Below, piece after piece: positions 1 through 20,319 of a stretch of DNA of 64,000 bases. Under the pieces are notes generated by a model. It made no database searches. It was not told the DNA's origin and saw only the letters and a list, made by a program, of their open reading frames with translations. The position numbers were made by a program, and so were the translations under genes. Source of the DNA: Candidatus Bathyarchaeota archaeon (lineage in GTDB: Archaea; Thermoproteota; Bathyarchaeia; TCS64); assembly GCA_963769425.1 (NCBI GenBank), contig CAVYLP010000003.1, positions 29,852 to 93,851 on the forward strand. Reading direction: 5' to 3'. Numbering within the stretch: the stretch's first letter is position 1; the number at the start of each line of letters is the position of its first letter.

Positions 1-7
1 TGAAGCA

Positions 8-1732
8 TTGATGTTATATATGGATTTAAAAAAACATTTATTATTAGATATTATAAATAAAAAACAAAAATGGATATTAGCCATATTCATAACGTTATTA
101 ATCATTTCAATAAGTTTGTTATTTATTTTAACTTATACATCAAAACCGTTTACTTTAACTGAAAATAGTACCCTCTTTAGTGTTCTTCCGCCTTTATATT
201 GGGTTTTAACTTTATTAAATTTTATATTCATTTTTACCATTAGTAGATTTATTAAAAATAAAAAATTGCTATTCTCATTACTAATTTTGGATTCCTGCAC
301 TTCACTGTTTCTTAATTATATATTTTTTATACCTGTAGGACAATCAGATATAAATTCAGTAACAAAATATCTTACGGTATTAAATTCATCTAATAACATT
401 GGCATAACCCAAATTAATATTGATAGCTATTTTCAATGGCCGATATATTTTATATTTGCGAAAATCATAATGCTTGTGTTCAACACAGATATATCAACAA
501 CAATTAAAATTGGGTACAGTCTATTCAATATTTTATTTACATTTTTTATAACATTTTTCCTTATTAAACTTAATATTAGTATTAAAAATATATTTTACAT
601 TCTACCAATATATAACATATTAAGTTATCATTTTATAGTTTTACAATTTGCTCAACAAACATTAGCTCTTTTATATACCATATTGATATTTATTTTGTTC
701 ATTAGCATTGAAAAAATAAATGTAAAGTCATTATTATATATAATTTATATAGCATTAATTTTCACACATCCATTTTTTTTCATATTTTTCATAACATCCA
801 TTTTAATAGAGATTACATTATTTAAAAATAAAAAGAAGATTATAAATATTAATTTATTTCTCTCATTACTAGCCATATATTTAATAAGCTATAAAATATT
901 CTTTTCGAGCATAAATTCTCAATTCATAGATCTAATAAGCAATGTTGGATTATTTAAAAGCGAGACATGGACAACTATATTCAGCTTTTTAGGACTAAAA
1001 ATTAACAATCAGACTTCTGCAACATATCCGTTTTATAATTTAGTAAATATCCAATACCTATCACTTTTAGCTAATATATCAAGATTAATTTTACTATCAT
1101 TCATAGGAATCCTCATGATCGATGGTCTTATAATGCTTAAAGAAAAACAATTATTCAAAACCATTAAACAGTTAGACATCTCAATCATGATTTCTACACT
1201 AATTTTTTGGATAATTGGATTATTTTCTTCATTTTTAGGTCAACGCTCACTTCAGGTGTTTTTCATACCAGTCGCAAAGAGCTACAACTATATAATTAAA
1301 AAATCGACCATCATGAAATCAATAATTCTATTACTAATAATTATATCCCCTATTGTTTTCTCATTAACTTCTTGGGGAGACACCTTTTTGACTGGAAGTT
1401 ATTCAGTCAAAGATTTTGAGATGGAGAAATCGGGTCAAATTATTGACAAATTTGCTCTGAGTGATCAAAAAGTTTTAGCTGCAAACAATGGATTTCCAAC
1501 CGGGTATCCCTCAGGTCTTAAAATCTATTATGTTCAACCAGGGTACTTTGAGTACATCAATATAACAAATAAAACATCTAACATGGACTTAATTTTATAT
1601 ACGCCAAAAATGAACATGTTAATACAATACTACGGAATTCAACAAATTAAAAAACAAAATTTATTGAATAATAACGTATTATATAATAATAAGAACACTA
1701 TATGCATAAATCCTTTACATGTCATCAAATAA
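8..1732 (+). CDS. Large polytopic membrane protein (574 aa) in the AT-rich island. It may be a glycan polymerase or an oligosaccharyl/glycosyl-transferase-type membrane protein.
   Basis: Long ORF with more than 10 predicted hydrophobic segments. It heads a cluster of glycosyltransferase and sugar-modifying genes. No family motif was recognised. Confidence 0.45.
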   Translation: MMLYMDLKKHLLLDIINKKQKWILAIFITLLIISISLLFILTYTSKPFTLTENSTLFSVLPPLYWVLTLLNFIFIFTISRFIKNKKLLFSLLILDSCTSLFLNYIFFIPVGQSDINSVTKYLTVLNSSNNIGITQINIDSYFQWPIYFIFAKIIMLVFNTDISTTIKIGYSLFNILFTFFITFFLIKLNISIKNIFYILPIYNILSYHFIVLQFAQQTLALLYTILIFILFISIEKINVKSLLYIIYIALIFTHPFFFIFFITSILIEITLFKNKKKIININLFLSLLAIYLISYKIFFSSINSQFIDLISNVGLFKSETWTTIFSFLGLKINNQTSATYPFYNLVNIQYLSLLANISRLILLSFIGILMIDGLIMLKEKQLFKTIKQLDISIMISTLIFWIIGLFSSFLGQRSLQVFFIPVAKSYNYIIKKSTIMKSIILLLIIISPIVFSLTSWGDTFLTGSYSVKDFEMEKSGQIIDKFALSDQKVLAANNGFPTGYPSGLKIYYVQPGYFEYINITNKTSNMDLILYTPKMNMLIQYYGIQQIKKQNLLNNNVLYNNKNTICINPLHVIK

Positions 1733-1885
1733 GCATATAAAAATTTTTTAAATATTCTAATTTTAAATTTTAAAAACAGTTATAAAAAATATAACATCAT
1801 AAATAAAAATAAAAATATGCTTTTAAGTAGAATAATAAGAAAGTTTAAGACCCAATTCCCTAAGTAATGACTAAATGAATATATA

Positions 1886-3118
1886 ATGAAACAAATACGA
1901 ATGGCGCTAATATTAGGAAATTTTTATACCAAATCTTTTCCGAGCTGGCCACAGGTTACTGGGGTATATGGTTTAAATTTACCAAACAAAGGACACCTCG
2001 TCGACATGTTCATGCCTTATCATGCAAATGCATTTCAAAAAACACAATCTATAGCTTTGTATAAAAGCAGAATTTATTTAATTCCTTGGATGAAAACCAA
2101 TTCATACCTATTTTCTATGGTTACATTCATGATATACCAAATGAGACTTTTCTTTAGTTTATTAAAATTAAATAAGGAAAATCATTATAACATATTTCAG
2201 GTTAGAGACGAAATATTCTCAGGAATAACCGTATTATTATATAACATCTTATTAAAGAAAAAATATACATTCAACTACTCATTTCCATTTTTTGAGGGAT
2301 TAAATGAAGCATATAGGAATGGTGAAAAAGTAAATAAAATTCAGTTATTATTTTTCTATATTCAAGATATTATTTTAAAAAATTTACTATTCAAAAAAAG
2401 TACCTATATTTTTCCAATAAGTGGTGAAATGCTATCAGAACTGGTCAAAATCGGTATTCCACGAGATAAAATGTATCCGCTTACAGAAGGAATAGAACCA
2501 ACCACATTTAAAATCAATTCGAATTATAACGAACTGAAAAAAATTCTCAACATTAATGATAACGAATTTATCATTTCGTACGTCGGATCACTATCATCTT
2601 CAAGAGGCATTGAAATAATAATAGACGCCTTTGAGATGGTTTTAAAAGATAACCCCCAAACAAAATTATTATTAATTGGGTCAGGAAATGATTTCAATTA
2701 CTTAAAAAATAAGGTTGACCGTAAAAATCTTAATAATTCAATAATTTTTACCGGCCAAGTAAGTCATGATGAGGTTCCAAATTATATTTCCATATCTAAC
2801 GTTTGTTTGTCTATAATTAAACCTTTAAAGAGCTTTTTTGTTAGTTCTCCATGTAAACTTTTTGAGTATATGATACTAGGGAAACCGATAATTGCTAATA
2901 AAGAAATTCCTGAACATGAAAGAGTAATATCAGAATCAAATTGTGGCCTATTAACAGAATATAATACAAATGATATAAAAAATGCGATAAATTATTCCAT
3001 TAAAAACTATGATAATTTTAAATTACTAGGAGAAAATGGGAAAAAATGGGTTATTGAAAAAAGAACATTTTCTAAGATCTCAGAACAATTAGAAGAGATT
3101 TATTTATCGCTTTTATGA
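1886..3118 (+). CDS. Glycosyltransferase, GT1/GT4-type (410 aa)
   Basis: C-terminal motif EYMILGKPIIANKEIPEHERVISESNCGLL is typical of group-1 glycosyltransferases (E-x7-E nucleotide-sugar binding region). It sits in the glycan cluster. Confidence 0.7.
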   Translation: MKQIRMALILGNFYTKSFPSWPQVTGVYGLNLPNKGHLVDMFMPYHANAFQKTQSIALYKSRIYLIPWMKTNSYLFSMVTFMIYQMRLFFSLLKLNKENHYNIFQVRDEIFSGITVLLYNILLKKKYTFNYSFPFFEGLNEAYRNGEKVNKIQLLFFYIQDIILKNLLFKKSTYIFPISGEMLSELVKIGIPRDKMYPLTEGIEPTTFKINSNYNELKKILNINDNEFIISYVGSLSSSRGIEIIIDAFEMVLKDNPQTKLLLIGSGNDFNYLKNKVDRKNLNNSIIFTGQVSHDEVPNYISISNVCLSIIKPLKSFFVSSPCKLFEYMILGKPIIANKEIPEHERVISESNCGLLTEYNTNDIKNAINYSIKNYDNFKLLGENGKKWVIEKRTFSKISEQLEEIYLSLL

Positions 3119-3167
3119 TAACGATTGATTAAGAATTTCAATTCCGGCACATAAAGTACAATAGTGT

Positions 3168-4253
3168 TCAACTACTAATGGTTTTGAATTTGTTCTGTAA
3201 CGCTGGATCTTCCTTTATTTGAACCAAGCTTTCCGGATAATAGCTAATAAACCATACCAAGAAAGATGTCACATCAATTTTATCATTCAATAAATGATTT
3301 CTCTTGACACGCCAATCTTGTTTGACACCATTCTCAGATATCAACATTGTAGCGTATTTCAAAGCCTCAGAAGGATTCGAAAAACTATGCAAAAGATCAT
3401 ACTTTTTCTCAAGTTCCAACAGATTACCCATTGTATTCGATAGCGATGAAACGTATACCGAAGGAGTGCCCAATAAGGCGGCTTCAGTCGCCATCGAAGC
3501 CCCCTCCCCCACATAAAGCGATGCATAATACAGTAAATCATGGATATACACTGGATGAATTGTTAATTTGAATTTTTCAATATCGTTTGGCAATTGCCCT
3601 TCGGCACTCACAAAAACTTTTCCATACTTCGATAATTCTTCAATAAATGCCATTTTATCAAGAATTCCTGTTTGACGAACATCATGTGTGGCGGTCCAAG
3701 CACTGAATCGGATAATTGTGAACTTATCCTCAATCTTAAGGCTAAGCATATCAAGAACAGCTGGATTTGGTGAAAACCATCTTGGGTGAAGATAAACTAT
3801 TTTTTGATCCCCTTGATACCTGATTTGTTTTGAACCTAAATTTAGCTTATAGTTATCAGGGGTAAAAATGACGCTCGTGAAGGGTGCGTACAATCTATAC
3901 TGTTCTCTCGAGTGCTCCGTATCTTCAAAAGTAATCGATGGTTTTTTTAATAGCCAGGCTACATGTGCTGCACGAACCTATCCAAGACCGATGAAAATAT
4001 CTGGCTTAAAATCCAATGCGGCTTTATACAGTTTTAAATCCATCAAAGGCATGTTCAATAATTTCTTAGTAATAGAATCGCCGTAATTACCAAAGTTGAT
4101 ATAATTAACACCATAGCAATCCAATAACTCAAAAACAATAGGTCTACCTGACGCTATAACTAATACTTTATTACCTAATCGCTCCATTTCACGGATAAAA
4201 TATTTGAAAAAGTGAACATGAGCAGGATGATTAATATCCGTAATGATATTCAA
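3168..4253 (-). pseudogene. DUF354-like protein (a predicted glycosyltransferase/epimerase-like family) interrupted by an in-frame TAG
   Basis: ORFs 3978..4253 and 3168..3893 are in the same frame on the minus strand. Translation reads ...IFIGLG * VRAAHVAWLLKKPSITFEDTEHSREQYRL-YAPF... through a TAG at 3978-3980. The C-terminal ORF starts at TTG. Confidence 0.55.
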
Positions 4254-4299
4254 TACACTCTAATATTATAGAATTGTTTTCTAAATATCAATTGAATGG

Positions 4300-5295
4300 T
4301 TATATTTGAGCCTCGATTCCCTTATACTTCAATTGCAAAATATTTTTAAAACAATCGAAAATTGGTTTTCTAATAAATTTATAATATTTTCCATAATTTA
4401 CCAAATTTCCACCAAATCTTCTCTTAAACTCACGGGGCCCGTAAGGCCTTTGAGGATTTCCCGCCCCTCCAAAGTCAAAAAATTTATATCCATTTTTACT
4501 GCCAATTTCTAAACCTAACCATACCATTAATTCATTTGAATATTCAGAAACGTCATTATACAAAGATCCAGCATACCAATCATACATTACATCCTTATAG
4601 GTCAGAAATATTCTTGTAACTATAGGCTCATCATTTTTATATCCAATTTTTCCTATTATTTGTCCCTTAAGATACTTAAAAGCATTGATAAAAACTATCT
4701 TGTTTGGATTAGGCATATTTACTCTTTTATAAGTATTACAAATAAGACGATACGATTCATCGATATTTTTTTGAGTTTTAATATCGGAAATCACGATATT
4801 TTTACTTAATGCTTTTTTAATATTTTTTCTTCTATTTTTAGGAATTGAATCCCATGTTATTTTTGAATCTAGATTTAGTGGTATTTCATAATTCAAGTGA
4901 TCCTCATAATAATAACTTATTTTTGAAAGAGCATTTTTAATGCTGCTTGTATCCCACATATTTTTAATATCTATCATAGAAGAAGGTATAATTTTTGGAT
5001 TTAATTCATCGATGTAGGATAATAGCATCGACGCATACATCGATTCATCGATAATTGGTCCCCCCTGAAAAGATAATCTTGAAAATAAATTATAATAATT
5101 TGTTAAATTCCCAACCATTAACCCCTTTATATTGTTATTATTTAATATAGTCAAACCCACTGATTTATTATAATTATCAATATTATTTACTTTATAATAC
5201 TCAGGCGTTTGAAATATATTGCCAAATTTATTAGTTAAAACATACTCTTTCCATTGTTTTTCATTAACTTTATCTATATTCATAATTTGTAGCAT
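4300..5295 (-). CDS. FemAB-like acyltransferase (FemABX / DUF482-like GNAT-fold family)
   Basis: C-terminal FDFGGAGNPQRPYGPREFKRRFGG motif characteristic of the FemAB family. 331 aa. Confidence 0.6.
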   Translation of the reverse strand: MLQIMNIDKVNEKQWKEYVLTNKFGNIFQTPEYYKVNNIDNYNKSVGLTILNNNNIKGLMVGNLTNYYNLFSRLSFQGGPIIDESMYASMLLSYIDELNPKIIPSSMIDIKNMWDTSSIKNALSKISYYYEDHLNYEIPLNLDSKITWDSIPKNRRKNIKKALSKNIVISDIKTQKNIDESYRLICNTYKRVNMPNPNKIVFINAFKYLKGQIIGKIGYKNDEPIVTRIFLTYKDVMYDWYAGSLYNDVSEYSNELMVWLGLEIGSKNGYKFFDFGGAGNPQRPYGPREFKRRFGGNLVNYGKYYKFIRKPIFDCFKNILQLKYKGIEAQI

Positions 5296-5298
5296 AAG

Positions 5299-6063
5299 TT
5301 ACCCTCCTCTAAAAATACGTATAGCCAATTTACCCGAGTTAAACAAATTATCTAAACACCAACTTATTACAAATTCAGAATAATTCGTTGCCCATCTTTC
5401 AGGGTGAATATTTAAATATAATTTAGAAAAGGACTTTGTGGAAATTACTTTTATTAAATCATTTGTATTTCTTATTTTAATCGAATTTATATCAGTTTTA
5501 ATGTAGTCCCTTAAATTGTTTTTATTATCCCAGCTACGTCCAGCATCCGTATAATAATCTATATCAGAAATAGATAGACTACCATCGCCAAGCAAATTAA
5601 AATCTTCAAACTTTACATTTTCCCAAATAGAGCTGCTCACATATCTCGACAAGGGCCGCCCATGCATGCTAATCGTATTAACATAGCATATTTTTCTAAA
5701 TTCTTCGAGCTCTTTCTTAAAAACATTAATGGCTTCAAATTGGTCACCATTTGTCTTGCAGAGCGTCTCATAATGATAGCCAATCTCATGCCCCATAACC
5801 GAAATTGATCGAATAATATCCTTATCAAAAACTCCAGAAGAATATCTAAAATAATATGTCGCTGAAATTCCTAAATTGTATTCCAGTTCAGCCATTTTTA
5901 AGGCATTCTTGGGCTTTCGGTCAACATCATGTCTTAAAATTATAAATCCATCCACCGGATGAGATTTTAAATATTCTTCTACGGTAATGAATCTATATCT
6001 AGAAATAATATTACACAGTTCTTTATACTTAGCTAATGTAAAATCAAGAGTCATATAGCTCAC
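5299..6063 (-). CDS. Polysaccharide deacetylase-like protein (carbohydrate esterase 4 superfamily-like)
   Basis: RHDVDRKP motif and His-rich metal-site residues (HEIGYHYE). It is separated by only 3 nt from the upstream FemAB-like gene. Confidence 0.5.
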   Translation of the reverse strand: MSYMTLDFTLAKYKELCNIISRYRFITVEEYLKSHPVDGFIILRHDVDRKPKNALKMAELEYNLGISATYYFRYSSGVFDKDIIRSISVMGHEIGYHYETLCKTNGDQFEAINVFKKELEEFRKICYVNTISMHGRPLSRYVSSSIWENVKFEDFNLLGDGSLSISDIDYYTDAGRSWDNKNNLRDYIKTDINSIKIRNTNDLIKVISTKSFSKLYLNIHPERWATNYSEFVISWCLDNLFNSGKLAIRIFRGG

Positions 6064-6204
6064 ATCGTAATGAATTAACGATCATAATTCTATTATTAAA
6101 TAGTATGCAATTTATTAAGAGTACGTTTCGCCGTTATTACAATGATTGCCAACCTAAATAAGAAAACAGTATTACTTTGAAGAACTCGTGCTAACTAATG
6201 AGTA

Positions 6205-7203
6205 TTAAAAAAATCGCCTTTTAAGGAGCCTCAAATACACTGACTCTGCGAATTTACCCCGTATATTCTGTTTCCTAACGGTATAAAAAGCGGTAAGTTT
6301 CGGTCCAAATTTTGATTTATATGTGGCAATTCCTTCTTTGTTAGCGCCTACAAAATCTATTTTTAGGATGCCTTCCTGCTTACATTTTTTTATGTTTTCC
6401 CAAGTGAGCAACTCATTTACAGGTATTTTTCCTTCAGGTCTTACGCTTCCAAGCCAATCCATGTAAGTATCATTGTGCCATAGAACAACTTCAGATCCGA
6501 CTATATCCTCGCCATTTTTTACTAAGTGGATGCATATATTATCTGGAAATAGTGCCCTAAGTTCGTTTAAATAATCTTTACTATATAATGGAATTGTTAA
6601 TCCTTGTTCAATATATCTCTTTGAAATCATACCAAATACAAGATCACTTTTATCAGTTTCAACTATTTTTATATTCAATTCTTCCGCTTTTCTTATTTTA
6701 GAACGTTTCTTAATATTAATACCCTTCCAAATTGTATCTATATCGGAAGATAAGTCTAGGATATATGTATAGTTAACATTCACATCATATCCACCCCAAA
6801 TTAACTGTCTAGTATCAATAATATCAGGCATGAACGAAATAAATATGTAATCGGGGTTTAATTGTTCTAATGTTTTAGAGAAATCATCATAAATAATCTT
6901 GAGATATTCTTCCTGTTTCTCTTGGTTAAAATCATAAAATGTGTCTTTAAGGGCATATCCAAGATAGGGTATACTAGCTCTCGGCGGTGGTGAGAATAAC
7001 ATCTTAACGGAATATTGTTGTTTATAGAAAACAGGGAATAAGCAAAACAGTTCATCGGTCTTAAAAAAACCGTAGGTTAACAAATCGAATCCAGAGTATT
7101 TAGCCGTTGTTTTAAGAAAATCCCAACGATGAAATATTGTTGAGTGACTGCAATCCTTAATGAATTTATCCCAGACCTGCGGGTCATCAATTATTTTTAT
7201 CAA
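6205..7203 (-). CDS. FemAB-like acyltransferase, paralog of 4300..5295
   Basis: C-terminal ...GILKIDFVGANKEGIATYKSKFGPKL resembles the FemAB signature. Size is similar (332 aa). Confidence 0.55.
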   Translation of the reverse strand: MIKIIDDPQVWDKFIKDCSHSTIFHRWDFLKTTAKYSGFDLLTYGFFKTDELFCLFPVFYKQQYSVKMLFSPPPRASIPYLGYALKDTFYDFNQEKQEEYLKIIYDDFSKTLEQLNPDYIFISFMPDIIDTRQLIWGGYDVNVNYTYILDLSSDIDTIWKGINIKKRSKIRKAEELNIKIVETDKSDLVFGMISKRYIEQGLTIPLYSKDYLNELRALFPDNICIHLVKNGEDIVGSEVVLWHNDTYMDWLGSVRPEGKIPVNELLTWENIKKCKQEGILKIDFVGANKEGIATYKSKFGPKLTAFYTVRKQNIRGKFAESVYLRLLKRRFF

Positions 7204-7291
7204 AAGGCCAGTCCTCGGACTCTATCTAACAGCTCAAAGATAAATTGATTATTATTAACCATATATATTATTCTTAACTTAATTATGTACA

Positions 7292-8332
7292 ATGAATTAC
7301 GACATATTGAAATCAAGTGATAAAATTTGGGACATCTACACGGTAAAAAATGATTATCAAATTAATGAAACTAATAATAATTTAAAACGCAACTCTGAAA
7401 TAATAAAAAATCCTCTGGCCTCAGAATATCTATTTAAAAATGAAAAGGTGCCCGAATATCCAAATGGGGAGGGATTTGCTTTATGTCTTACACACGACGT
7501 CGATGAAATTTACTTTCCATGGAGCCATTTACTACAAGCCATAATTTATTACGCCAAAAAAATGAATACGCATGGAATAATAAATTCCTTCCATTGGAAA
7601 TTTCGTAAAAAAGAGAGTCCATATCTAGATTTTAAAAAGATACTCGATCTTGAGAAAACATACAATGTTAGATCCACATTCTTTTTCCTAGCAACTGAAA
7701 AAGATCCCATCAGATTTCGATATGTCATTGAAGACGCAACGGAAATCATCAAAGATATTCAATCAGAAGGATTCGAAATAGGACTTCACGGTGGATACTA
7801 TGCTTACAATAATCTTGAGGACATCATTCAACAAAAAATTAGACTCGAAAGAGTTTCTAACAGCCAAGTAATTGGTTACAGGAATCATTATCTAAATTTT
7901 AACGTCCCTCAGACATGGTATTATCTGACAAAAGCGGGATTTACATATGATTCAACCATCGGATACAACACAAATAACGGATTCAGAAATGGCATGTGCC
8001 ACCCATACAAACCATATGATCGGAATATTAATAATTATATAAATATTATTGAAATTCCCCCAATTATCATGGACTCTGCATTTCCAAAAGGCACACTAGT
8101 AACTAATTGGTGGGAATTAAAGAAGATGTTAAAAGTTGTCGAGAAAAATCACGGGGTTCTCACCGTTAATTTCCACAACGAAGTGTTTCACGCCCCCTAC
8201 AAAGCAGACTTCATGAAGCTGTACGTGCATCTCCTGGAGGAAGGGAGAAGAAGAAAGGCTTGGATGACAAATGCCTCCGAGATACATGACTGGTGGAGAA
8301 AAAAATATATCGAGGAAGATATTATCACATAA
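7292..8332 (+). CDS. Polysaccharide deacetylase-like protein, paralog of 5299..6063
   Basis: LTHDVDE motif near the N-terminus and GLHGGYY His motif. 346 aa. Confidence 0.5.
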   Translation: MNYDILKSSDKIWDIYTVKNDYQINETNNNLKRNSEIIKNPLASEYLFKNEKVPEYPNGEGFALCLTHDVDEIYFPWSHLLQAIIYYAKKMNTHGIINSFHWKFRKKESPYLDFKKILDLEKTYNVRSTFFFLATEKDPIRFRYVIEDATEIIKDIQSEGFEIGLHGGYYAYNNLEDIIQQKIRLERVSNSQVIGYRNHYLNFNVPQTWYYLTKAGFTYDSTIGYNTNNGFRNGMCHPYKPYDRNINNYINIIEIPPIIMDSAFPKGTLVTNWWELKKMLKVVEKNHGVLTVNFHNEVFHAPYKADFMKLYVHLLEEGRRRKAWMTNASEIHDWWRKKYIEEDIIT

Positions 8333-8572
8333 ACTACCACATATATATCAGCGTCGCGCGCATAATAATCTAACTACTTCCTGATTAATAAATAATATAC
8401 AGTATAACTTAGTTTTAAACGGTGTATAAAAAGAATTCAGCTCATATAATAGTGGTACGAGCTAATTTTCAACTTGTCCAAGAATCGGAGAGGGTGATTC
8501 AGTGAGCATCAGCAAAACCTTCTTTACTTCGGTTCGGATGAGTATACATAGTAGTTGAGTTCTTGAGTTAGA

Positions 8573-9662
8573 TTAATAGTAGTCCCCGTAGGAAAAGTGT
8601 ATTTTGCTAGGTTGGGAGTTCTCAAGGAGTTTGAACTCCTTCTTTGCCAGGTCGGTATGGCAATACATCATAAGTGGCAGATTGCTTCTGACATCAATAA
8701 AGCCCAATTTAGATGCAATTTTCTGGTAGTTATGACCTGCCACAACTCTATAATTTATAGCATTTACACTCAAGCCATCGAAGTAGTCACACGCGTCCAC
8801 AAACAGGCTTGAAGCCACATCCAATCTCCCAGGTAAAGCAAGGAGGTCCATTATGTAACCCTCCGATAACGCACCATCTCCCTTAACCTGAAGCACACAG
8901 TACCCCAGAATCTCTTCCCCCTCAGTGACCTGCTTGACAAGGATACGGTGCCATCGCGGATCTAAATATCTCCAATTCAGGTAATCTTTGTTCCTCTCAA
9001 CCACGAAATTTAGACCCGCCTTGACTCTGTCGTAGAAGACATTGATACGTTCATCGAAGAAAGATTTCTCGGCGATGACAAAGTCACCTCGATAGCTAGG
9101 TTTGGGAATCAATCTACCTTCAATCGATTTCATTCCTTTGAAAGTGCTGAAAGCAAAGCACTTCATAGTAGCATTTTCTATAGACACTGACCTGAAGTAT
9201 TTGCGAACGTTCTTCACTCTGAGCATGTGGCATATTGCATGTGGGAAGACCCTTCGACCCTTCTTGAAGTGGTGCTTCACTATAATGGGACTTAGAGGAA
9301 TTTCATAACTTACCTCATAGCCCTTACGGGTCAGCTCCAGCATGTTGGAGTCGAATACCCTAGAATATACCCCCAAACCTTTGAACTCCCTATGGGTAGC
9401 CGCGTCGTCTCCGTACCTCCCCATGAAGGTGCGGCTACCGATCTTTATTGTTAGAAGAATTGCATGATCAGCAGCCAACTACTTTTCCATCATTCACAGC
9501 AACAGTTATTATCGAGCCCTCGGGACAATCGATATACTTCCACCGCCAAAAATCAAGTGGAGCCTTTATTCTGGCCCAATCTGGAAATGACTGTATCAAT
9601 AATTCCACTATTCCCTCCTCATCGCCAGATTCATAAGGACGGACATTAAAATCAAGACTCAT
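8573..9662 (-). pseudogene. GNAT-family N-acetyltransferase (tandem-GNAT, about 360 aa), frameshifted
   Basis: ORF 9468..9662 gives the N-terminus (...ITVAVNDGKVVGC). ORF 8573..9478 gives the remainder (YGDDAATHREFKGLGVY acetyl-CoA motif). They are collinear with the intact paralog 11354..12442, but a 1-nt frame change falls near 9470-9480. Confidence 0.55.
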
Positions 9663-9972
9663 GTAGTTCGATTGGGTAGAAACCTATATAAAAAAATAAG
9701 TATGTTTGTACGCTCTATCGTAGCGTTCGAGAATATCCTATACTTGGCAGTGATGTCATTTACGACCGAAAACAAAGCCCTTTTAACGAGGTGGTTGGTT
9801 TAGAAATAAAGTTCAAGTAATTAGAGGTAAGATAAAGTGCATGTCGGGGACTATAAGGCGTGCACACATCACCCTAAAGAGCATCCATTTCATCTGACTG
9901 GAGACTCGGACAAACGATAAATATACAATTACAAAAAAGTATTGTCCCTGACGAGCACTTAGGAGGGAATAT

Positions 9973-11030
9973 ATGTCAAACGAGCTTCAAACAAGATTTT
10001 ATAAAAATGGCGATGAACTGGAAATCGTAAAATTACTAAGGCGTATTTTCGATGACTGGGCTGCTCCGCATAAAACCAATTGACTTCTGGAAATGGAAAT
10101 ATCAATCTACGCCCCTAGGGTCATCTATTGCGCTTGTAACAATCGACGATAAATTGGCAGGAATCTGGCCATAGGTTAAATTATCGAATTAAGATCGGAG
10201 AAAGGGTTCTAAGAAGTCATTACGGAGATGATTTCGCGACACATCCAGATTTCAGGGGCAGAGGTGTATATAATAAAGTACTTAATGTATTAGAAGATGA
10301 ACGTCATAATAGTGGGGTAAATTTTCTCTACACGATAACCACAAATCCAATCGTAATGAAAGATAATATCAAGATGGGCAGATTTGACTTACCCCAGCCA
10401 CTTCTACACATGATCCTTGTAAAGCAGGCTAGATCCGGAACGCAAGCAGGTCTTTACTTGTATGGCGGGTTAAAACGACTGACAAAAAGTCCTTCCCATG
10501 CCGCCTCCTCGAAACCCCATGGGGACTATTTAATCGAGACAATAAGGGAATTTAACGGTGCATCTGATACATTCTATGAACGAATAAAAGACTCATACAA
10601 CTTCATCGTCGAGAGAAACAAGGAATTCATGAACTGGCGGTACTGCGACATCAGAGGAGGCAGATTTTTAATTAAACAAGCAAAACGAGGCGATGACGTT
10701 TTAGGTTATATCATTCTTGAGGTTAAGACTAAAGGAGAAAACTCGGAAGGATACATCATTGATATGCTAGCTGAGGACGATGAGGTTGCTACTTCCCTTT
10801 TAAAAGATGGCATTAACTCTTTAGCAGTTCTAGGAGTTGGTACATTTAACTACAGGGTTGTAAAGAACCATCCCTATCAAAAAATTTCAGAAAAACTTGG
10901 CTTCGTGGCACCACCTAATGTAATTGATATGCATGTCTACTGTCAATTTGATAACGCTGAAGAAGCAAAGGAGACTCTTTTAGCGACTGAACCAGGAAGT
11001 ATACACTTCAATTATGGCGATTATTTCTAG
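9973..11030 (+). pseudogene. GNAT-family N-acetyltransferase paralog. The N-terminal half is broken by several frameshifts or stops. The C-terminal 224 aa form an intact ORF (10356..11030).
   Basis: Fragments MSNELQTRFYKNGDELEIVKLLRRIFDDW... and ...DFWKWKYQSTPLGSSIALVTIDDKLAGIW lie in different frames. The C-terminal part aligns with 11354..12442 (ERNKEFMNWRY, GYIIDMLA). Confidence 0.5.
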
Positions 11031-11353
11031 AAACCGGTATATATTTAATATTCATTGTTCAAAGAATCGTGTGTATGGAACGATATACATATTTTAGTAC
11101 TAGACAAGTTCCTTAACTGAATGCTACGTGCGCAAGAGAGGATATTTCAAAACGATTAGGCTAAAAGTATGTTGTAGGGAATGGGTTTTTTAGTATCGGA
11201 TTCCGTCCCCTCCAGGGTTTACGAATCTGGCTCTTAAAATACTTCTTAAATTTAAACATTATAGATCTAGATGATCATGTATAATTACATATATAAAGGG
11301 AAGCGAATCATTAGTAAAAAACAATATAACTTCCCAACATATTAAACATCATA

Positions 11354-12442
11354 TTGGACGACGATACAGTCATTAGAGTCTACAATCCAAGCGATGAGAA
11401 TGGCATTGTTGAACTCCTACAGATGTCATTCCCATTCTGGAAAAAGATTAAATCCCCTCTCAACTATTGGAGATGGAAATACCTTGAAAACCCGAAGGCC
11501 CCAATCATATTCATCGCCGAAACAGACGGCAAAATCGTAGGAGTCGATCATTTCACTAGGCTCAAGGCAAAAATAGGAGAATCAACCCAGGAAATATACT
11601 ACGGTGACGACGCTGCGACCCACCCTGATTATAGAGGTCGTGGAATCTATAACAAGATCAATAGGTTGCTTGAAGAAGAAAGAAAACGAAATGAGATTAA
11701 GATAGCTTTCTCGTTCACAACAAGCCAAACAGTTGTCAATAGGGGACTCGAAAAGGGCCGCCTTCCTTTTCCGCACCAACTAATTAACATGCTTAATGTG
11801 AATGACATAGACCTCTACCTTAAAACATCAAAGGTAAAAAACTTAACACTATATAGTCTTGGTTTCAAAATCCTTAAGACGGGTAACACGATTGTTAACC
11901 AATTTAAAGAAAAACAAAGAAACACAAATTTCGAGATAATTCAGGTCTCAAAATTTAAAGAGAATATGTGGGAGTTCTGGAAAACAATAGAACAAGAATA
12001 CTCTCTCATCTTCGAAAGAAGCAATGAGTACCTGAATTGGAGATACTCTGACCCCACTGCCGATGAAATAAAAATCCGAGAAGCCGTGATTAAGGACGAG
12101 GTAATCGGATATGTTGTGACCGAACTGAGGAATTATGCCGACAACATCCAAAAAGGCTACATTTTGGATCTTCTAGCGCTCCCCGAAAGACTCGACGCCG
12201 CTGGAAGCCTTTTAGAAAATGCTCTCAGTTACTTTAATAGTCTGGGAATAAATGGTGTCGAATATCAGGTTATTAGGGGACACCCATACCAGAGTCTAGC
12301 GAGCAAATATAACCTCGTAGACACGTCGCTGATATCTAAAAGATACTTTTCATGGCAATACAAGGGTGCTGAGAAAGAGTACGAGACAATCAAAGCAGCA
12401 CCGTCTAATAAAATTCACTTCACACTAAGCGACTATCTCTAA
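11354..12442 (+). CDS. GNAT-family N-acetyltransferase (362 aa), intact member of the three-gene paralog set
   Basis: YGDDAATHPDYRGRGIYNKI (R-G-x-G motif A). The second half repeats the GNAT-like fold (ERSNEYLNWRY...GYILDLLA). Confidence 0.6.
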   Translation: MDDDTVIRVYNPSDENGIVELLQMSFPFWKKIKSPLNYWRWKYLENPKAPIIFIAETDGKIVGVDHFTRLKAKIGESTQEIYYGDDAATHPDYRGRGIYNKINRLLEEERKRNEIKIAFSFTTSQTVVNRGLEKGRLPFPHQLINMLNVNDIDLYLKTSKVKNLTLYSLGFKILKTGNTIVNQFKEKQRNTNFEIIQVSKFKENMWEFWKTIEQEYSLIFERSNEYLNWRYSDPTADEIKIREAVIKDEVIGYVVTELRNYADNIQKGYILDLLALPERLDAAGSLLENALSYFNSLGINGVEYQVIRGHPYQSLASKYNLVDTSLISKRYFSWQYKGAEKEYETIKAAPSNKIHFTLSDYL

Positions 12443-12862
12443 CCACTGACGTACAAAGCCAACCACATCAATCTTTCAATGGAATTTGACTTTCACTAAA
12501 TCGGGGTATAAAATGTGACTCGTGAGAGTCGCCGGCAGTATGAAAGGGAATCTGGCTTGTTCAGATAAACTGCATGACAATGATCTCTTTACCGCAAGAT
12601 TTTTTTGTCAACATTATGGATAACGGTTTGAGAAGTGCTCACCAAACACCTCTGATACCCTTAGCCAAGTAATGCGCGTTCTACTGTCCAGTTAAACTAA
12701 CCGGAAAATAATACTTCGACAAATCGGTTAAATAGTTATGTGAATACTCATGGCTGCTCAAGTAAACCATGCTAAATTGGTTTCAAAAGTTAAAAAAAAA
12801 GCGTAAATTCCCCTGTTAATGACTTGTTAAACACTATAAATATTTCAATGCCTAATGAACTA

Positions 12863-13687
12863 TTAATAATCAACGATTTTTGCCTTTTTTAAGTCCAGAT
12901 TATTTGTACTAGTAATCACTACATTCGAATGAAAAAACTTATAAAAATACTTCATTTTAATTCTCCAGAAATAGTCACGAAGCAACAATCTAGACACATT
13001 AACAATATATCTTGTATAACGAATCTTCGATTTCTCATTGCCATAACGTGCAGGTATGTGGACGTCCATCACTCGGAAGCCAACCACATTTAGTTTCGCA
13101 AGAAGATCATTACAGTAGCCATAGGAGGGATAGACACCATTAAGATCAATTCCATGTAGAGCTTTCGAACTGATAGCTGTGTACCCATTCTGAGGATCAC
13201 CAATATTCCAATATCCTGATGAAAATTTGGTTAGCAACGTCAATAAAAAGTTCCCAAGTCTACGAAAGTTACTCATACCCTTCATATCTTTGATTGATAA
13301 AAGTCTATTTCCCTTGGTGTAGTCGGCCTTATCATCAATTATTGGGTCAACAAGTGAAGGTATATAACTTGGATCCATTTGGTTATCTCCGGCCATTACA
13401 ACTACTATGTCAATATTATCGTCGATGCTTTTTTTATACCCTGTAATTATCCCGGCACCTACTCCCTTGTTTACTTCATGCTTAATTGGGTGAATTCGGA
13501 AATCAGAAAGTGCTAGTTCTGCTGCTATTTCGTATGTTCGATCAGGGGAATCATCGTCAATTACGTAAATCTGATCAATGTAATCCGGAATTGTTTGTAT
13601 GGTTTGTCCAATAAGAAGCTCTTCTTTGTATGCGGGTACGACTACAGAGAGTTTCTTATTTTTATACATTATCGGGACCCTATTCAT
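12863..13687 (-). CDS. Glycosyltransferase family 2 (dolichyl-phosphate sugar synthase-like)
   Basis: N-terminal LSVVVPAYKEE...YVIDDDSPDRT (DxD) and GAGIITGY are typical of GT2. Confidence 0.75.
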   Translation of the reverse strand: MNRVPIMYKNKKLSVVVPAYKEELLIGQTIQTIPDYIDQIYVIDDDSPDRTYEIAAELALSDFRIHPIKHEVNKGVGAGIITGYKKSIDDNIDIVVVMAGDNQMDPSYIPSLVDPIIDDKADYTKGNRLLSIKDMKGMSNFRRLGNFLLTLLTKFSSGYWNIGDPQNGYTAISSKALHGIDLNGVYPSYGYCNDLLAKLNVVGFRVMDVHIPARYGNEKSKIRYTRYIVNVSRLLLRDYFWRIKMKYFYKFFHSNVVITSTNNLDLKKAKIVDY

Positions 13688-13992
13688 TTTAATATGCTAT
13701 TATGAGTAAATCTTCTATCTGATCGATGGATTATCATCGCACGCATATCAGTTCCGTTACAGAATATCCTTGACTTATTAATATCGTCTCCGATATTCTA
13801 GTTCTAATCTATCGTTAGGTAGTAAATTAAAATAATCTTAATAATTATTAGGTGCAGAATAAAAAACTATTAGACCCTGATAAAAGTGTTACAATCTTTG
13901 TCAAGTTAAATAAAGCATTGAATAAAACCAGTCGAAATAGAACAGCGCGCATTAAAGATAAGACGTATTGACCATATTGCCCATTTTACTAT

Positions 13993-14936
13993 TTAGCCCA
14001 CCAGGACTCTCTGCCTTGTCTTCGAAGATCTCAGAGCCTCCTCACAGAGGGTAAGTGCACGAAGACCGTCTTCCCCGGTTATCTCAGGAGATAAACCGTT
14101 GGCGACGTGGTCTATGAATGAGCGAAGTTCCTCCTGAAGAGGTTCTTTATATGGTAAAAAGGGCTGTACAATCATTTCGTTATTTTCGATGGTGATCTGC
14201 TGGGTAGTGTACTCGACGTTGATTATTCCTTCTGTTCCGGTTACTGTGAGTGTCCTGATTCTTCTTGGGGTAAGCCAGTTTGTTTCGATAAATGCACTCC
14301 GGTCTCTATCATAGAAAAGATTGATGTTAGCATAATCTTCATACTTATGCCTGATACACCCTGCTACGGCTGAAACATACTGTGGCTCCCCTATGAGAAT
14401 GTGATTAATAATATCAATATCGTGGATGGCAAGGTCTTTCACAACACCAACGTCACCAATCCGATCTGGACTTCGACTTACTCTACGGGAGTGAGCAAGT
14501 ATTACATCTCCAATTTCGCCATTGGAACTTCTCTATACACCTCTTGGACTGCGGGATTGAATCGTTCTACGAAGCCAACCGTTAGAAAGACCCCAGCTTT
14601 GTGGGCCTTATCGATCAGGTTTTTCGCCTCTTCAATTGTATTCGTCATCGGTTTCTCGACAAGAACATGCTTACCATTTTCAATGGCTTGTAGGGCGAGA
14701 TCGTGGTGTGTTATAGTTGGTGTACAAATATCGACGACTTGTATGTTAGGGTCGTGGAATATTATTTTTGGATCGGTGTAGTATGGTACATGGTAAAGTT
14801 CACCGATCTCTCTAGCGGTAGGTTCATGAGCATCCGATATTGCCACAAGTTTGGCTCCGGGTAGGCTCCTGTAAACGCGAGCGTGGTTTCGACCCCAGCT
14901 CCCACATCCTATTACTGCGGCATTAATCGTCGACAT
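13993..14936 (-). pseudogene. Gfo/Idh/MocA-family NAD(P)-dependent sugar oxidoreductase, split by a frameshift
   Basis: ORF 14502..14936 carries the Rossmann N-terminus (AAVIGCGSWGRNHARVY...EKP). ORF 13993..14442 carries the C-terminal domain. They are in different frames and joined near 14445-14505. Confidence 0.6.
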
Positions 14937-15210
14937 AGTAGAGATGTTGTTAGTTGAAGGATTAATGGGTTATTAAAATAAGGATACACTCTTGCCAATG
15001 ATCAAGAGTCCAGAAGGAAAAAAGAAGCAATTCGCGGCAATTAATTAACCTATTTTGCTTCGTCAAAAAATGTTTATAAACTTCAGGAAGAAAGTTGAAA
15101 TTTTTATATAAACTGAGATTGTGAGCCTTAGGATCATCTACATATTGTGAGCTCCAGCACGTAGCACAGTGTAAATTAATTTAATAATTAGTCCCCGGTT
15201 TAAATTCATT

Positions 15211-15453
15211 TTAGCTGACTATACCGAGAACCTTAATTAAAGCAAAATAGCTAAGTGTCATAAGAAAGGCTACCCCAACTAAATCTACGTCTCGTCTCTT
15301 TTGTCTGAAAATTAGAGTTGTTCCAAAATAACAAATACTCAGAATTGTGAGATAGATGTCCAAAGTAATCTTTGGGATTAGGAATTGTGCAGTTAAGAGT
15401 GATACAAAGAAAACGATACTGAGTGTTGAAATATAGAGTTTTTGTTTATTCAT
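15211..15453 (-). CDS. Small membrane protein (80 aa, three hydrophobic segments)
   Basis: ORF only. Confidence 0.3.
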   Translation of the reverse strand: MNKQKLYISTLSIVFFVSLLTAQFLIPKITLDIYLTILSICYFGTTLIFRQKRRDVDLVGVAFLMTLSYFALIKVLGIVS

Positions 15454-15464
15454 CTTTTATCACC

Positions 15465-16740: not shown

Positions 16741-17033
16741 TAGTTACTTCGACCAGTTTAATAATAGTTTATGCCTTCTTGTTTCTGTTTGTTTTTTATG
16801 TAGAAAAGGTAGTGAAGAGGAAAGTAACAATGAGAACGAAAGTGCTATTGGGTTTCGGCGCACGCAATTCATAAATGGCTCAAATTAATTGGAAATTCAT
16901 AACAGTTTCTACAATCATTATCACTTATTAAAAAGAGTGTTTCGGGAATAAATTCTTATAAATGAGGATGAAAATCGCACCCTTTTCAAGGATGTATATT
17001 AATAGCTAAAAAAATAACTTTTATTGTTACAAA

Positions 17034-17311: not shown

Positions 17312-17379
17312 GAAAAGATGAGTTTTAGGATTCCTCGTCTAAGCGGACTCATTAGTCATGATATTTCACATAGTCAAGA

Positions 17380-20169: not shown

Positions 20170-20279
20170 TTGGTGCCGGGAATGGGAATTGAACCCATGG
20201 TCTCTATCCGGCTAAGGCACTGGTGCCTATAACCTCTGGATCATGAGTCCAGCGCATTAGCCAAGCTATGCTACCCCGG
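20170..20279 (-). tRNA. tRNA-Met/Ile2 (anticodon CAT) with an approximately 31-nt intron at a non-canonical position (variable-loop / T-arm junction). CCA is genome-encoded.
   Basis: Minus-strand read GCCGGGG-TA-GCAT-AGCTTGGCTA-ATGC-G-CTGGA-CTCATGA-TCCAG-[AGGTT...GAGACC insert]-ATGGG-TTCAATT-CCCAT-TCCCGGC-A-CCA. The acceptor, D, anticodon and T stems all pair. The extra 31 nt contains a GGCAC-CA-GTGCC hairpin. Confidence 0.6.
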
Positions 20280-20319
20280 CCCTTCTGACCCATACACACT
20301 GCACAAATTTAAATCCTGA

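Follow-up and report, generated by a model that had tools for sequence, protein, structure and literature searches.

A low-GC surface-glycan island in a Bathyarchaeia-type archaeon, its AT-rich left part most likely imported

The left end of the 64,000-nt stretch of DNA analysed here (the window) carries a genomic island of a familiar kind, a low-GC surface-glycan island, the enzyme content of which is unusual and several genes of which are broken. Its assignment to cell-surface glycan biosynthesis is well supported, and its AT-rich left part has most likely been acquired from a different microbe. In the reading that we favor, and consider probable though well short of certain, a Bathyarchaeia-type archaeon hosts one surface-glycan locus composed of a resident right layer and an imported left cassette, with the diamino-sugar chemistry proposed below. 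Such a locus would reach from at least 3.1 kb left of window position 1 to about 16.3 kb. In the right layer (about 8.4–16.3 kb, 40% GC), which would be the older of the two, three old GNAT paralogs accompany an AglJ-like GT2 and a gene resembling UDP-GlcNAc 3-dehydrogenase. The left layer (from at least −3.1 kb to about 7.4–8.4 kb, 29% GC) would be a cassette from a much more AT-rich donor, bringing a DegT aminotransferase, two GT4s, a GT-C transferase, DUF354 and two deacetylase/FemAB-like pairs.

Positions 1–8400 (block 1) average 29.7% GC, with 500-nt sliding windows between 0.20 and 0.38, and positions 8401–16500 average 39.9%, in agreement with an earlier sequence-only reading that described them as extremely AT-rich and intermediate. 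The same reading put the genome otherwise at about 55–60% GC, which is too high: positions 16501–64000 average 51.1% in a 35–63% mosaic that reaches 58–63% only at about 50–64 kb and in a few patches, the conserved TatA-TatC flank lies at 44–53%, and L001, the locus of the nearest relative compared, at 46%. The 8.4–16.5 kb segment is only mildly under this probable host baseline and looks like an older, resident part. Jensen-Shannon segmentation puts breaks at 7440 and, as the strongest split in the window, at 20170. Nor is window position 1 the start of the island, as had been supposed; an independent and identical contig, L005, adds a further 3111 bp on the left side with a GC of 28–30%, and the island reaches at least 3.1 kb past that position.

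The compositional contrast extends to codon and amino-acid usage. GC3 is 0.22–0.36 in the eight coding segments of block 1 and 0.40–0.88 in 30 genes from 17–64 kb, ranges without overlap (Mann-Whitney p=2e-8); GC1 and GC2 of the block-1 genes are low as well, and the FYMINK amino-acid fraction is 43% in block 1 versus 25.5%. As the shift is not confined to GC3, long residence in an AT-rich genome is likely. Block 1 is 93% coding with ORFs of 254–574 aa, and no stop-free stretch exceeded 148 aa when it was shuffled 200 times; the ORFs are therefore judged to be real, and their intactness at lengths beyond those expected by chance points to purifying selection. The lateral exchange that the earlier reading suggested is thus supported for the AT-rich block, where every codon position and the amino-acid usage are foreign, but not for 8.4–16.5 kb. 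The genes of block 1 are as follows.

20..1732, + strand: GT-C-fold membrane glycosyltransferase, 570 aa, about 11–13 TM helices, soluble C-terminal domain of about 115 aa
1886..3118, + strand: GT4-type (Pfam Glycos_transf_1) glycosyltransferase; PF00534, E 7.6e-25
3168..4253, − strand: DUF354 (GT-B-like) gene with one in-frame TAG at 3978–3980; both halves match PF04007
4300..5295, − strand: FemAB-like transferase 1; weak PF02388 and PF13480 matches
5299..6063, − strand: divergent CE4-like deacetylase candidate, 254 aa; motifs RHDVD and GHEIGYH
6205..7203, − strand: FemAB-like transferase 2 (VimA-like class); PF13480, E 1.3e-12
7292..8332, + strand: CE4 polysaccharide deacetylase (VimE-like class); PF01522, 27.8 bits (cut-off 23.1)

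Pfam searches recovered the gene types named from the sequence alone (GT1, GT2, DUF354, two FemAB/Acetyltransf_6, Polysacc_deac_1, GNAT and Gfo/Idh/MocA). The large polytopic membrane protein named with them is present and is a GT-C-fold glycosyltransferase, but it matches no Pfam or NCBIfam family. It differs from known GT-C enzymes (STT3/AglB/PglB, ArnT, AftA, ALG9/12, PMT) in its small C-terminal domain and in an identity to solved structures of just 6–13%. In L090 its homolog directly adjoins that of the GT4, for which the best NCBIfam match is TIGR04063 (PEP-CTERM/XrtA GT; 104.8 bits, under its cut-off). The DUF354 translation reads ...IGLG*VRAAH... around the break, and TAG is an ordinary stop codon within the window. 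This TAG is known from one assembly, with two independent Logan contigs ending on either side of it (3861 and 3983), and intact orthologs occur in L007, L010, L011 and other loci.

The 254-aa deacetylase candidate has no Pfam or NCBIfam match. Its five orthologs (43–48% identity) nevertheless keep H45-D46-x-D48, R44 (the first residue of RHDVD), H92 and H97 invariant, and its family aligns with the Deac346 (CE4 deacetylase) family in hhalign (probability 87%, E 3.9e-6, 41 columns). FemAB-like 1 lies directly downstream of it, an order repeated in L021, where both deacetylase/FemAB pairs are present. The two FemAB-like proteins are paralogs (29% identical, BLASTP E 2e-8) that score 39.2 and 59.4 bits, respectively, against TIGR03019 (cut-off 260), and the family profile of FemAB-like 2 reaches FemX structures at E 1.7e-4. 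Its partner at 7292..8332, which is paired with FemAB-like 2 in 12 related loci, has VimE (NF053580) as best NCBIfam match (E 1.2e-24, 86.8 bits, cut-off 440). To the right of these pairs lie the following genes.

8573..9662, − strand: two-domain GNAT paralog A, frameshift near 9480 (tblastn with GNAT paralog C)
10076..11030, + strand: two-domain GNAT paralog B, frameshift near 10166, about 34 N-terminal residues absent
11354..12442, + strand: two-domain GNAT paralog C, intact, 362 aa; PF13527 and PF00583
12863..13687, − strand: GT2 of the polyprenyl-phosphate sugar synthase type (AglJ-like); PF00535, E 2e-23
13993..14936, − strand: Gfo/Idh/MocA oxidoreductase, frameshift near 14530; best family NF040723
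15211..16256, − strand: two hypothetical membrane proteins, 80 aa and 263 aa, with TM-like segments; GC3 0.31 and 0.47

In tblastn with GNAT C against GNAT A, residues 1–64 fall in one frame and residues 60–361 in another, and the frameshift lies in the context GGCTGC-T-GATCAT, which contains no homopolymer. The GT2 scores 61.3 bits against TIGR04182 AglJ (cut-off 325) and has orthologs of 56–62% identity in clusters L007, L010, L041 and L059. Alignment to the L007 protein places the frameshift of the Gfo/Idh/MocA gene, the halves of which score 134.8 and 133.2 bits against NF040723 (archaeal UDP-GlcNAc 3-dehydrogenase); in L007 the ortholog is intact (60% identity) and reaches 329.9 bits (cut-off 450). 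The hypothetical membrane proteins at 15211..16256 match no family, and their membership in the glycan locus is uncertain. With DUF354, GNAT A, GNAT B and Gfo/Idh/MocA, four genes of the locus are broken, three of them in the 40% GC block.

Recurrence of the operon was counted over 45 related loci of at least 8 kb, and DUF354, Deac346 and FemAB-like 2 occur together in 12 of them. The L007/L008 region holds in a single cluster homologs of the GT2 (57% identity), Gfo (60%), FemAB (40%), deacetylase (44%), DUF354 (about 40%) and, at its end, GNAT C (28%), together with a UDP-sugar dehydrogenase, and adjoins LysW/LysX; the GT2 is likewise found with block-1 genes in L010, L041 and L059. Since related contigs hold genes of both blocks in single clusters, the AT-rich and intermediate blocks are best regarded as one locus. 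This recurrence also bears on the possibility of an assembly chimera, in which the AT-rich block would derive from a different low-GC organism of the same sample and be misjoined. The source is a metagenome-derived contig (383,910 bp), GC3 rises from about 0.3 to about 0.5 within about 1 kb near 7.4–8.6 kb, and the Logan contigs of ERR12035932 cover 1–3861, 3983–7648 and 12171–13979, none spanning the step at 7.4–8.4 kb. However, the genes on either side of the step share a function and cluster elsewhere, the composition shifts as a gradient (24% to 35% to 40–45%) and not at one clean join, and no repeat occurs at the step, leaving a misjoin only a slim chance.

The related loci further indicate how the low GC of the block arose. 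Core-operon GC equals flank GC in most of them (34–55%), as in L041 (0.546/0.543), L014 (0.434/0.434) and L010 (0.430/0.428), and the closest relatives, at 58–59% amino-acid identity (59% for FemAB-like 2) and in the same divergent arrangement, lie on L091 at 49% GC. The 30% GC copy in the window is therefore compositionally foreign. L007 is an exception, its cluster (0.34) being AT-richer than its flank (0.425), which leaves room for a family-wide lean toward low GC. Glycan loci very commonly have a low GC, and the exception, together with the four broken genes, would suit a native locus AT-enriched in place without transfer, whether by relaxed selection and AT-biased mutation or by selection for low GC. 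That account is improbable, given that block 1 is intact except for a single TAG, that the shift includes GC1, GC2 and amino-acid usage, that the broken genes lie mostly outside the 29% GC block, and that cassette and flank agree in GC in most orthologous loci.

Comparable low-GC exchanged glycan islands include bacterial O-antigen and capsule loci, variable Haloferax glycosylation clusters and the glycosyltransferase/S-layer islands of Haloquadratum (PMC5867893). The present island shares with them clustered glycosyltransferase and sugar-modification genes, foreign composition, a conserved/variable mosaic and pseudogenes. It differs in its host, a Bathyarchaeia-type archaeon represented by a metagenome-assembled contig alone, and in an extreme GC contrast (about 29% versus 46–51%).

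The chemistry that we propose is modeled on two known routes, the Wbp/Vim pathway of bacteria and the acetamido-sugar route of archaea. Its first steps, oxidation of UDP-GlcNAc at C3, transamination and N-acylation, would yield a 2,3-diamino sugar or uronic acid. N-acetyl groups would next be removed by the CE4 deacetylases, leaving free amines onto which the FemAB-like enzymes would place new acyl groups, probably amino acids. Assembly of the presumed lipid-linked glycan would fall to the GT4 and GT2 enzymes, and the GT-C enzyme may take a sugar from a polyprenyl-phosphate donor and transfer it on the outside of the membrane. The pathway probably works poorly in this genome, as the genes for the 3-dehydrogenase, DUF354 and two GNATs are broken and no UDP-sugar 6-dehydrogenase is visible in the window. 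The earlier proposal of an S-layer or cell-surface glycosylation locus is borne out for the cell surface by the enzyme families, the GT-C fold and the recurring cluster; for S-layer N-glycosylation in particular it is not, as the window contains no AglB.

In Porphyromonas gingivalis and Tannerella forsythia, VimE, a CE4 deacetylase, acts before VimA, a TIGR03019-type transferase, adds Ser or Gly (Veith et al. 2020, PMC7468200). The enzyme set of the island parallels this Wbp/Vim pathway, which yields an amino-acylated 2,3-diamino uronic acid, in having a sugar 3-dehydrogenase, a DegT aminotransferase, a CE4 enzyme closest to VimE, a TIGR03019-type FemAB transferase and GT4 enzymes. Unlike that pathway, the locus has an archaeal host, two deacetylase/FemAB pairs, DUF354 and GT-C; the window contains no WbpA-like, LbH WbpD-like or WbpS gene and no T9SS context. 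All named-equivalog matches (VimE, TIGR03019, AglJ, UDP-GlcNAc 3-dehydrogenase) fall under the curated cut-offs, those to VimE and TIGR03019 far under, and the DegT protein is generic, nearer PseC/LegC than WbpE.

The archaeal acetamido-sugar route of NF040723, which we take to be that of the Methanococcus maripaludis MMP0350-0353 genes, is approached through the Gfo/Idh/MocA protein and through a UDP-ManNAc dehydrogenase-like gene in the L007 cluster. Here, however, the score is under the cut-off, the window gene is frameshifted, and the partner acetyltransferase would be a GNAT and not of the LbH type. XrtA/PEP-CTERM EPS loci are resembled in that TIGR03019 pepcterm_femAB, TIGR03006 pepcterm_polyde and TIGR04063 stp3 are best or near-best NCBIfam matches, but with scores well under the cut-offs, and no exosortase, archaeosortase or PEP-CTERM protein was seen in the window.

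Features to the right of the locus bear on whether the island was carried by a mobile element.

TatA' 17034 onward, + strand; TatC 17380–18288, − strand; TatA 18335–18631, − strand: conserved flank (Pfam TatC, TatA)
20174..20280, − strand: tRNA, anticodon CAU, with a 33-nt intron; Rfam RF00005, 55.5 bits

An IS-bounded composite transposon, or an integrative element at this tRNA, would have as neighbors a real IS5-like element at 22219–23492 (23-nt inverted repeat) and the strongest composition break, which coincides with the tRNA 3′ end. The IS-end-like remnants proposed earlier at about 8350 and 13941–13965 agree with the inverted repeat of that element at no more than 11/23 and 13/23 positions, which is chance level, as over 100 sites across the window reach at least 13/23; the motif CGCGCGCAT that they share is not enriched (13 matches versus 9.5 ± 3.2 expected). 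No integrase or transposase lies within 1–20 kb, IS ends are likewise absent from the island, and a search of 1–20 kb and L005 for att-like copies of the tRNA 3′ part gave nothing beyond a single 16/17-nt match at 18800–18816 with E ~0.13. With the vertically conserved TatA-TatC genes also sitting between the tRNA and the glycan genes, carriage by a mobile element is very unlikely.

The TatA-TatC-TatA' order is common to L001 (TatC 81% identical), and TatC of a close relative, P0105, is 97% identical. Synteny with L001 is lost on both sides beyond these genes, so that the absence of the island from L001 carries little weight. TatA' is a pseudogene with a stop after codon 19, and KatG and DUF1254/1214 are also broken outside the island, so gene decay is not specific to it.

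Composition separates the left end of the window from the rest. Positions 1-8400 are 29.7% GC, 8401-16500 are 39.9% and 16501-64000 are 51.1%, and entropic segmentation of the window, made without prior assumptions, divides it into six blocks.

Blocks of the window by entropic segmentation
1-7440, 28.9% GC
7441-20170, 40.2% GC
20171-50200, 49.6% GC
50201-54730, 59.7% GC
54731-57720, 46.7% GC
57721-64000, 60.0% GC

The eight coding segments of block 1 (the AT-rich left part, ending at about 7.4-8.4 kb) have a GC3 of 0.22-0.36; per-gene values are 0.31-0.52 in the intermediate block (about 8.4-16.5 kb) and 0.40-0.88 for the 30 genes at 17-64 kb, which show zero overlap with block 1 (Mann-Whitney p=2e-8). 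GC1 and GC2 are also lowered in block 1, and FYMINK residues make up 43% of its proteins versus 25.5% elsewhere. By GC, codon usage and amino-acid usage alike, block 1 has the composition of a horizontally acquired island, and the low-GC block proposed in the sequence-only reading is borne out in its core. Its genes are genuine, since ORFs of 254-574 aa give a coding fraction of 93% and the longest stop-free run across 200 shuffles of the block is 148 aa. Markov-normalised tetranucleotide profiles point the same way, in that block 1 correlates with the other blocks at r of 0.15-0.32 and the others among themselves at 0.28-0.60, but the statistic is noisy at this size, the two halves of block 1 correlating at only 0.05. 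The companion figure of 55-60% GC for everything else in the genome was overstated. Outside block 1 and the intermediate block the DNA is a mosaic of 35-63% GC, the conserved TatA/TatC flank is 44-53% and the homologous locus in the nearest relative recovered is 46%; for the host, a baseline of about 46-51% is probable. The stretch of 58-63% GC at 50-64 kb (GC3 0.69-0.88) is an outlier in the direction opposite to block 1.

Whether low GC accompanies these genes wherever they occur can be judged from related metagenomic contigs carrying the cassette of DUF354, CE4 deacetylase and FemAB-like genes.

GC of the cassette and its flank in related contigs
L041, cassette 0.546, flank 0.543
L014, cassette 0.434, flank 0.434
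L010, cassette 0.430, flank 0.428
L007, cassette 0.34, flank 0.425

Only at L007, among these loci, is the cassette clearly below its flank. A contig of 49% GC (L091) carries the nearest known relatives of the deacetylase/FemAB pair in the window, which are 58-59% identical and keep its divergent arrangement, with DUF354 alongside. A homolog of the window's GT-C protein (the polytopic membrane protein at 20-1732) lies on a contig of 51% GC (L090) between two GT4 genes, near a Wzx-type flippase, a CapK-like ligase and two FemAB-like genes. Since cassette GC follows flank GC in most loci and these relatives stand at 49-51%, low GC is not a trait of the gene families. The composition of block 1, amino-acid usage included, accords with a long history in a genome of some 25-30% GC, and import from an AT-rich donor is the best explanation. 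Enrichment of a native locus in AT, in place and with no transfer, is contradicted by the long intact ORFs of block 1 and its shifted amino-acid usage, and also by the position of the broken genes, three of the four in the locus sitting in the 40% GC block. An assembly chimera, in which the AT-rich block was wrongly joined to a host contig, is unlikely, as genes from both sides of the composition step co-cluster in other contigs and composition changes in a graded manner. In two related contigs (L001, TatC 81% identical; L002, 58%) the island is absent beside TatA-TatC, but synteny is lost on both sides.

The imported layer continues beyond the window. An independent Logan contig (run ERR12035932) is identical to positions 1-3861 and extends 3111 bp further left at 28-30% GC, through a DegT/DnrJ/EryC1 aminotransferase gene and another GT4; the island therefore starts outside the window, and the AT-rich layer spans at least 11 kb. 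The flanking genes identify the host as a Bathyarchaeia-type archaeon, since the window's TatC is 81% identical to that of a SPRUCE peat Bathyarchaeia MAG and many more TatC matches are labelled Bathyarchaeia; a further TatC relative is 97% identical. On two JGI contigs (L007/L008), the genes of the locus form a single cluster next to archaeal-type LysW/LysX.

Genes of the L007/L008 cluster
GT2, 57% identical to the window
Gfo/Idh/MocA, intact, 60% identical
UDP-sugar 6-dehydrogenase
FemAB-like protein, 40% identical
CE4 deacetylase, 44% identical
DUF354, intact, about 40% identical
Polytopic 627-aa membrane protein, L007 18409-20292
Two-domain GNAT, 28% identical

The presence of genes from both the AT-rich and the intermediate block in this one cluster indicates a single functional unit, not two loci. 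Identity between L007 and the window is 57-60% for the GT2 and Gfo genes of the intermediate block and 40-44% for the genes of block 1, a pattern that fits an intermediate block forming the resident, vertically inherited part of the locus, and that differing functional constraints could also give. The lateral origin proposed for the whole low-GC region thus stands for block 1, on its composition, amino-acid usage and relatives at 49% GC, but not for the intermediate block, which looks resident. The 627-aa protein of L007 shares its architecture with the window's GT-C enzyme, with no detectable sequence similarity between the two. L007 also encodes (13705-15429) a possible surface protein of 574 aa whose one TM segment is C-terminal.

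The boundaries of the island were compared with two features further right.

Mobile element and tRNA of the window
22219-23492, complete IS5-like element, 60% GC, with 23-nt terminal inverted repeats GCGCGCTGCCTTGTCCCGAAATT
22415-23251, minus strand, DDE_Tnp_1 transposase of this element
20174-20280, minus strand, tRNA(CAU), interrupted past the anticodon arm by a non-canonical intron of 33 nt

IS-end-like remnants had been suspected at both composition boundaries, near 8350 and at 13941-13965. These sites match the real repeat at 11/23 and 13/23 positions, a level of chance given that more than 100 sites in the window reach at least 13/23, and the GC-rich motif common to them shows no enrichment in the window; the suggestion is withdrawn. 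A possible solo IS end, matching the repeat at 17/23 positions, sits at 46728-46750 immediately downstream of KatG. The intron-bearing tRNA was found by Rfam and missed by ARAGORN, and the strongest composition split of the window (20170) abuts its 3′ end. Despite this coincidence, integration at the tRNA is rejected for want of an att-like repeat, none being present in 1-20 kb or in L005, the Logan contig that extends the island leftwards; the vertically conserved TatA-TatC genes sit between the tRNA and the glycan genes. A 16/17-nt copy of the 3′ part of the tRNA at 18800-18816 brackets only a DIT1/PvcA-like gene (18918-19784). No integrase or transposase occurs within 1-20 kb, the left end of the island lying beyond that range. 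With integrase or transposase, att repeats and boundary IS ends all wanting, no signature supports an island carried by a transposon or integrated at the tRNA. By analogy with other glycan loci, the cassette could plausibly have arrived by recombination in conserved flanking glycan genes. A scan for sigma-70 promoters and terminators was uninformative on AT-rich archaeal DNA.

All the gene types first recognized by eye in the island are recovered by Pfam.

Glycan genes of the island, by Pfam
1886-3118, GT1/GT4
3168-4253, DUF354
4300-5295 and 6205-7203, two FemAB/Acetyltransf_6 proteins (FemAB_1 and FemAB_2)
7292-8332, Polysacc_deac_1 (Deac346)
11354-12442, GNAT, intact
12863-13687, GT2
13993-14936, Gfo/Idh/MocA

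The GNAT is the intact one of three old paralogs (two-domain, about 360 aa, 32-33% identity). The Gfo/Idh/MocA protein matches best the archaeal UDP-GlcNAc 3-dehydrogenase family NF040723 (134.8 and 133.2 bits for its halves, 329.9 for the ortholog that is intact in L007, cut-off 450); the DegT left of the window is a generic match. Deac346 is a CE4 deacetylase as judged from its PF01522 match (27.8, cut-off 23.1) and Asp/His metal-site motifs, with H68, D69, D71 and H166 invariant in 10 orthologs, and its best NCBIfam match is VimE (NF053580, E 1.2e-24, 86.8 bits, cut-off 440). Both FemAB-like proteins match TIGR03019 best (FemAB_2 at 59.4 and FemAB_1 at 39.2 bits, cut-off 260). FemAB_2 passes PF13480 Acetyltransf_6 (48.5, cut-off 22), both fall below the cut-off of PF02388 FemAB (19.2, cut-off 24), and a profile of the family extends to FemX structures at E 1.7e-4. 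Between the two genes lies a 254-aa protein (5299-6063) with no family match, which is probably a second, divergent deacetylase, as it shares the RHDVD and GHEIGYH motifs with the CE4 deacetylase Deac346 and its family aligns with that of Deac346 in hhalign at 87% probability (E 3.9e-6); its single-sequence structure model has a pLDDT of 44. Searches of PDB sequences with FemAB_2 or Deac346 as single sequences, or with the 254-aa family profile, returned nothing useful, and look-ups of identical proteins for TatC and its 97% identical relative, the GT4, the N-terminal Gfo part and Deac346 gave no match. The polytopic membrane protein has a GT-C membrane fold, and no model in Pfam or NCBIfam covers its family. 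D110, kept in at least 90% of 31 homologs, is a candidate for the acidic catalytic residue of GT-C enzymes (the Asp of PglB or ArnT), which sits in an extracytoplasmic loop close to the N-terminus; Y137, P141, Q209, H250 and G400 are invariant. The AglB oligosaccharyltransferase and Agl equivalogs that mark archaeal N-glycosylation clusters are lacking here.

In P. gingivalis and T. forsythia, Wbp enzymes make UDP-GlcNAc3NAcA, from which VimE is proposed to remove the 2-N-acetyl group and on which VimA, a TIGR03019-type FemAB-family transferase whose donor is only presumed, is proposed to install serine or glycine; elsewhere among bacteria, homologs of vimA/vimE also lie in clusters with wbp genes (Veith et al., PMC7468200). 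VimE (NF053580) is a CE4 UDP-2,3-diacetamido-2,3-dideoxy-glucuronate deacetylase acting on UDP-GlcNAc3NAcA, and its putative island counterpart Deac346 scores far below the cut-off. The island resembles this system in having a 3-dehydrogenase-like gene, a DegT, a deacetylase with VimE as best match and transferases with TIGR03019 as best match, and goes beyond it in having two deacetylase/transferase pairs, DUF354, GT4s, an AglJ-like GT2 and a GT-C enzyme. It differs in its incomplete Wbp core (WbpA, WbpB, WbpE, WbpD): a WbpA-like 6-dehydrogenase is absent from the window and present only in the related L007 cluster, the window holds GNATs and no WbpD-like LbH acetyltransferase, the 3-dehydrogenase-like gene that would stand for WbpB is frameshifted, and the DegT that would stand for WbpE is generic and lies left of the window. 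As all equivalog scores lie under their curated cut-offs, the likeness is in how the enzymes would work and not in family membership. With that reservation, we infer that the island follows Wbp/Vim-type logic. A 2,3-diamino sugar, possibly a uronic acid, would be synthesised first; one or two of its positions would next be N-deacetylated and receive a new acyl group, probably an amino acid, from a donor that may be aminoacyl-tRNA or acyl-CoA. Assembly of the glycan would take place on a polyprenyl carrier, with transfer by the GT-C enzyme on the outward-facing side of the membrane to an acceptor that may be an S-layer protein, a lipid or a polymer.

The same genes recur elsewhere. A metagenome scan seeded with the FemAB-like family (8-sequence alignment) returned 79 loci, of which the 45 of at least 8 kb were used for gene counts. 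DUF354, deacetylase and FemAB-like genes occur together in 12 of the 45, mostly as a tight co-directional operon; among these operon loci the 254-aa protein is found in 5, the GT2 in 7 and the 627-aa membrane protein in 7. Both deacetylase/FemAB pairs are found together on one contig (L021). In L041, L014 and L021, the ORFs next to the operon encode by Pfam beta-helix/PKD proteins, a Polysacc_synt flippase and an ATP-grasp enzyme, all surface-related, and do not settle the taxonomy of the contigs. The ATP-grasp gene of L021 (2287-3558) lies directly upstream of the 254-aa protein ortholog and suggests an alternative, tRNA-independent route of amino-acid ligation in some versions of the cluster. 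Within the literature covered by the search, no account appeared of a DUF354/CE4/FemAB association, nor of FemAB-type sugar acylation in archaea. We offer tentatively, as a proposal that may well prove wrong, that the operon is a widespread and hitherto undescribed module for removing N-acetyl groups from (di)amino sugars and putting amino acids in their place, an archaeal counterpart of Wbp/Vim. The two pairs in this island could modify N-2 and N-3, the module would be coupled to the GT-C family without a Pfam or NCBIfam model, and amino-acylated surface sugars would be a general, laterally traded envelope feature in archaea of anoxic sediments and soils.

Bathyarchaeia are an abundant, almost wholly uncultured group of anoxic sediments and soils, so that their cell surface is, to our knowledge, essentially unknown. 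The locus predicts one surface sugar for them, an N-deacetylated, re-acylated and possibly amino-acylated diamino sugar. It also ties DUF354 to a defined enzymatic neighbourhood of CE4 deacetylase and FemAB-like transferase, identifies an unannotated GT-C family, and extends the flexible 'glycotype island' pattern of bacteria and haloarchaea to Bathyarchaeia. Surface-glycan islands of low GC that pass laterally between genomes are well known, archaea included (PMC5867893), and the present one is an instance in a poorly known lineage, ordinary as a genomic island and more interesting in its gene content.

Several genes of the locus are broken in this genome. A single in-frame TAG at 3978-3980 interrupts DUF354, and frameshifts disrupt the 3-dehydrogenase-like Gfo/Idh/MocA gene near 14530 and two GNAT paralogs near 9480 and 10166. 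The pathway could be impaired in consequence, or other loci of the genome could complement it. Reading the TAG as pyrrolysine is unlikely, since TAG is a normal stop here and terminates 10 of 45 complete genes in the window's gene table. Three further genes are disrupted, so breakage is not confined to the island.

Disrupted genes outside the island
46782-48999, minus strand, KatG catalase-peroxidase, frameshift near 48700, N-terminal part (...TDSQE) in a separate frame
About 23998-25250, minus strand, DUF1254/DUF1214 gene with at least one frameshift, in a 60% GC patch adjoining the IS
17034-17345, plus strand, TatA′ (second TatA) pseudogene, stop after codon 19 at a conserved Trp and more disruption downstream

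The equivalent of TatA′ in L001 appears intact. Long-read homopolymer error is an unlikely source of the breaks, and sequencing error is unlikely to explain them all: two of three frameshifts lie outside homopolymers, two lesions (the DUF354 TAG and the TatA′ stop at the conserved Trp) are substitutions, and independent contigs agree with about 9.3 kb of AT-rich, homopolymer-rich sequence with zero indels, over stretches that exclude the lesions. Two Logan contigs of the same sample end at 3861 and 3983, flanking the DUF354 TAG, and may reflect a population polymorphism.

Two regions further right are described for completeness. Positions 50201-64000 encode a molybdopterin aldehyde-oxidase-type enzyme, a class-V aminotransferase, an MFS transporter, an SDR, an FMN reductase, an alpha/beta hydrolase and a second CE4 deacetylase, and may be a separate block from a high-GC donor. 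Tandem DUF4438 paralogs and a long minus-strand operon with a PF13941 'MutL' protein, DUF6754, an M29 peptidase-like gene and several genes without a family occupy 32933-34703 and 35226-42291.
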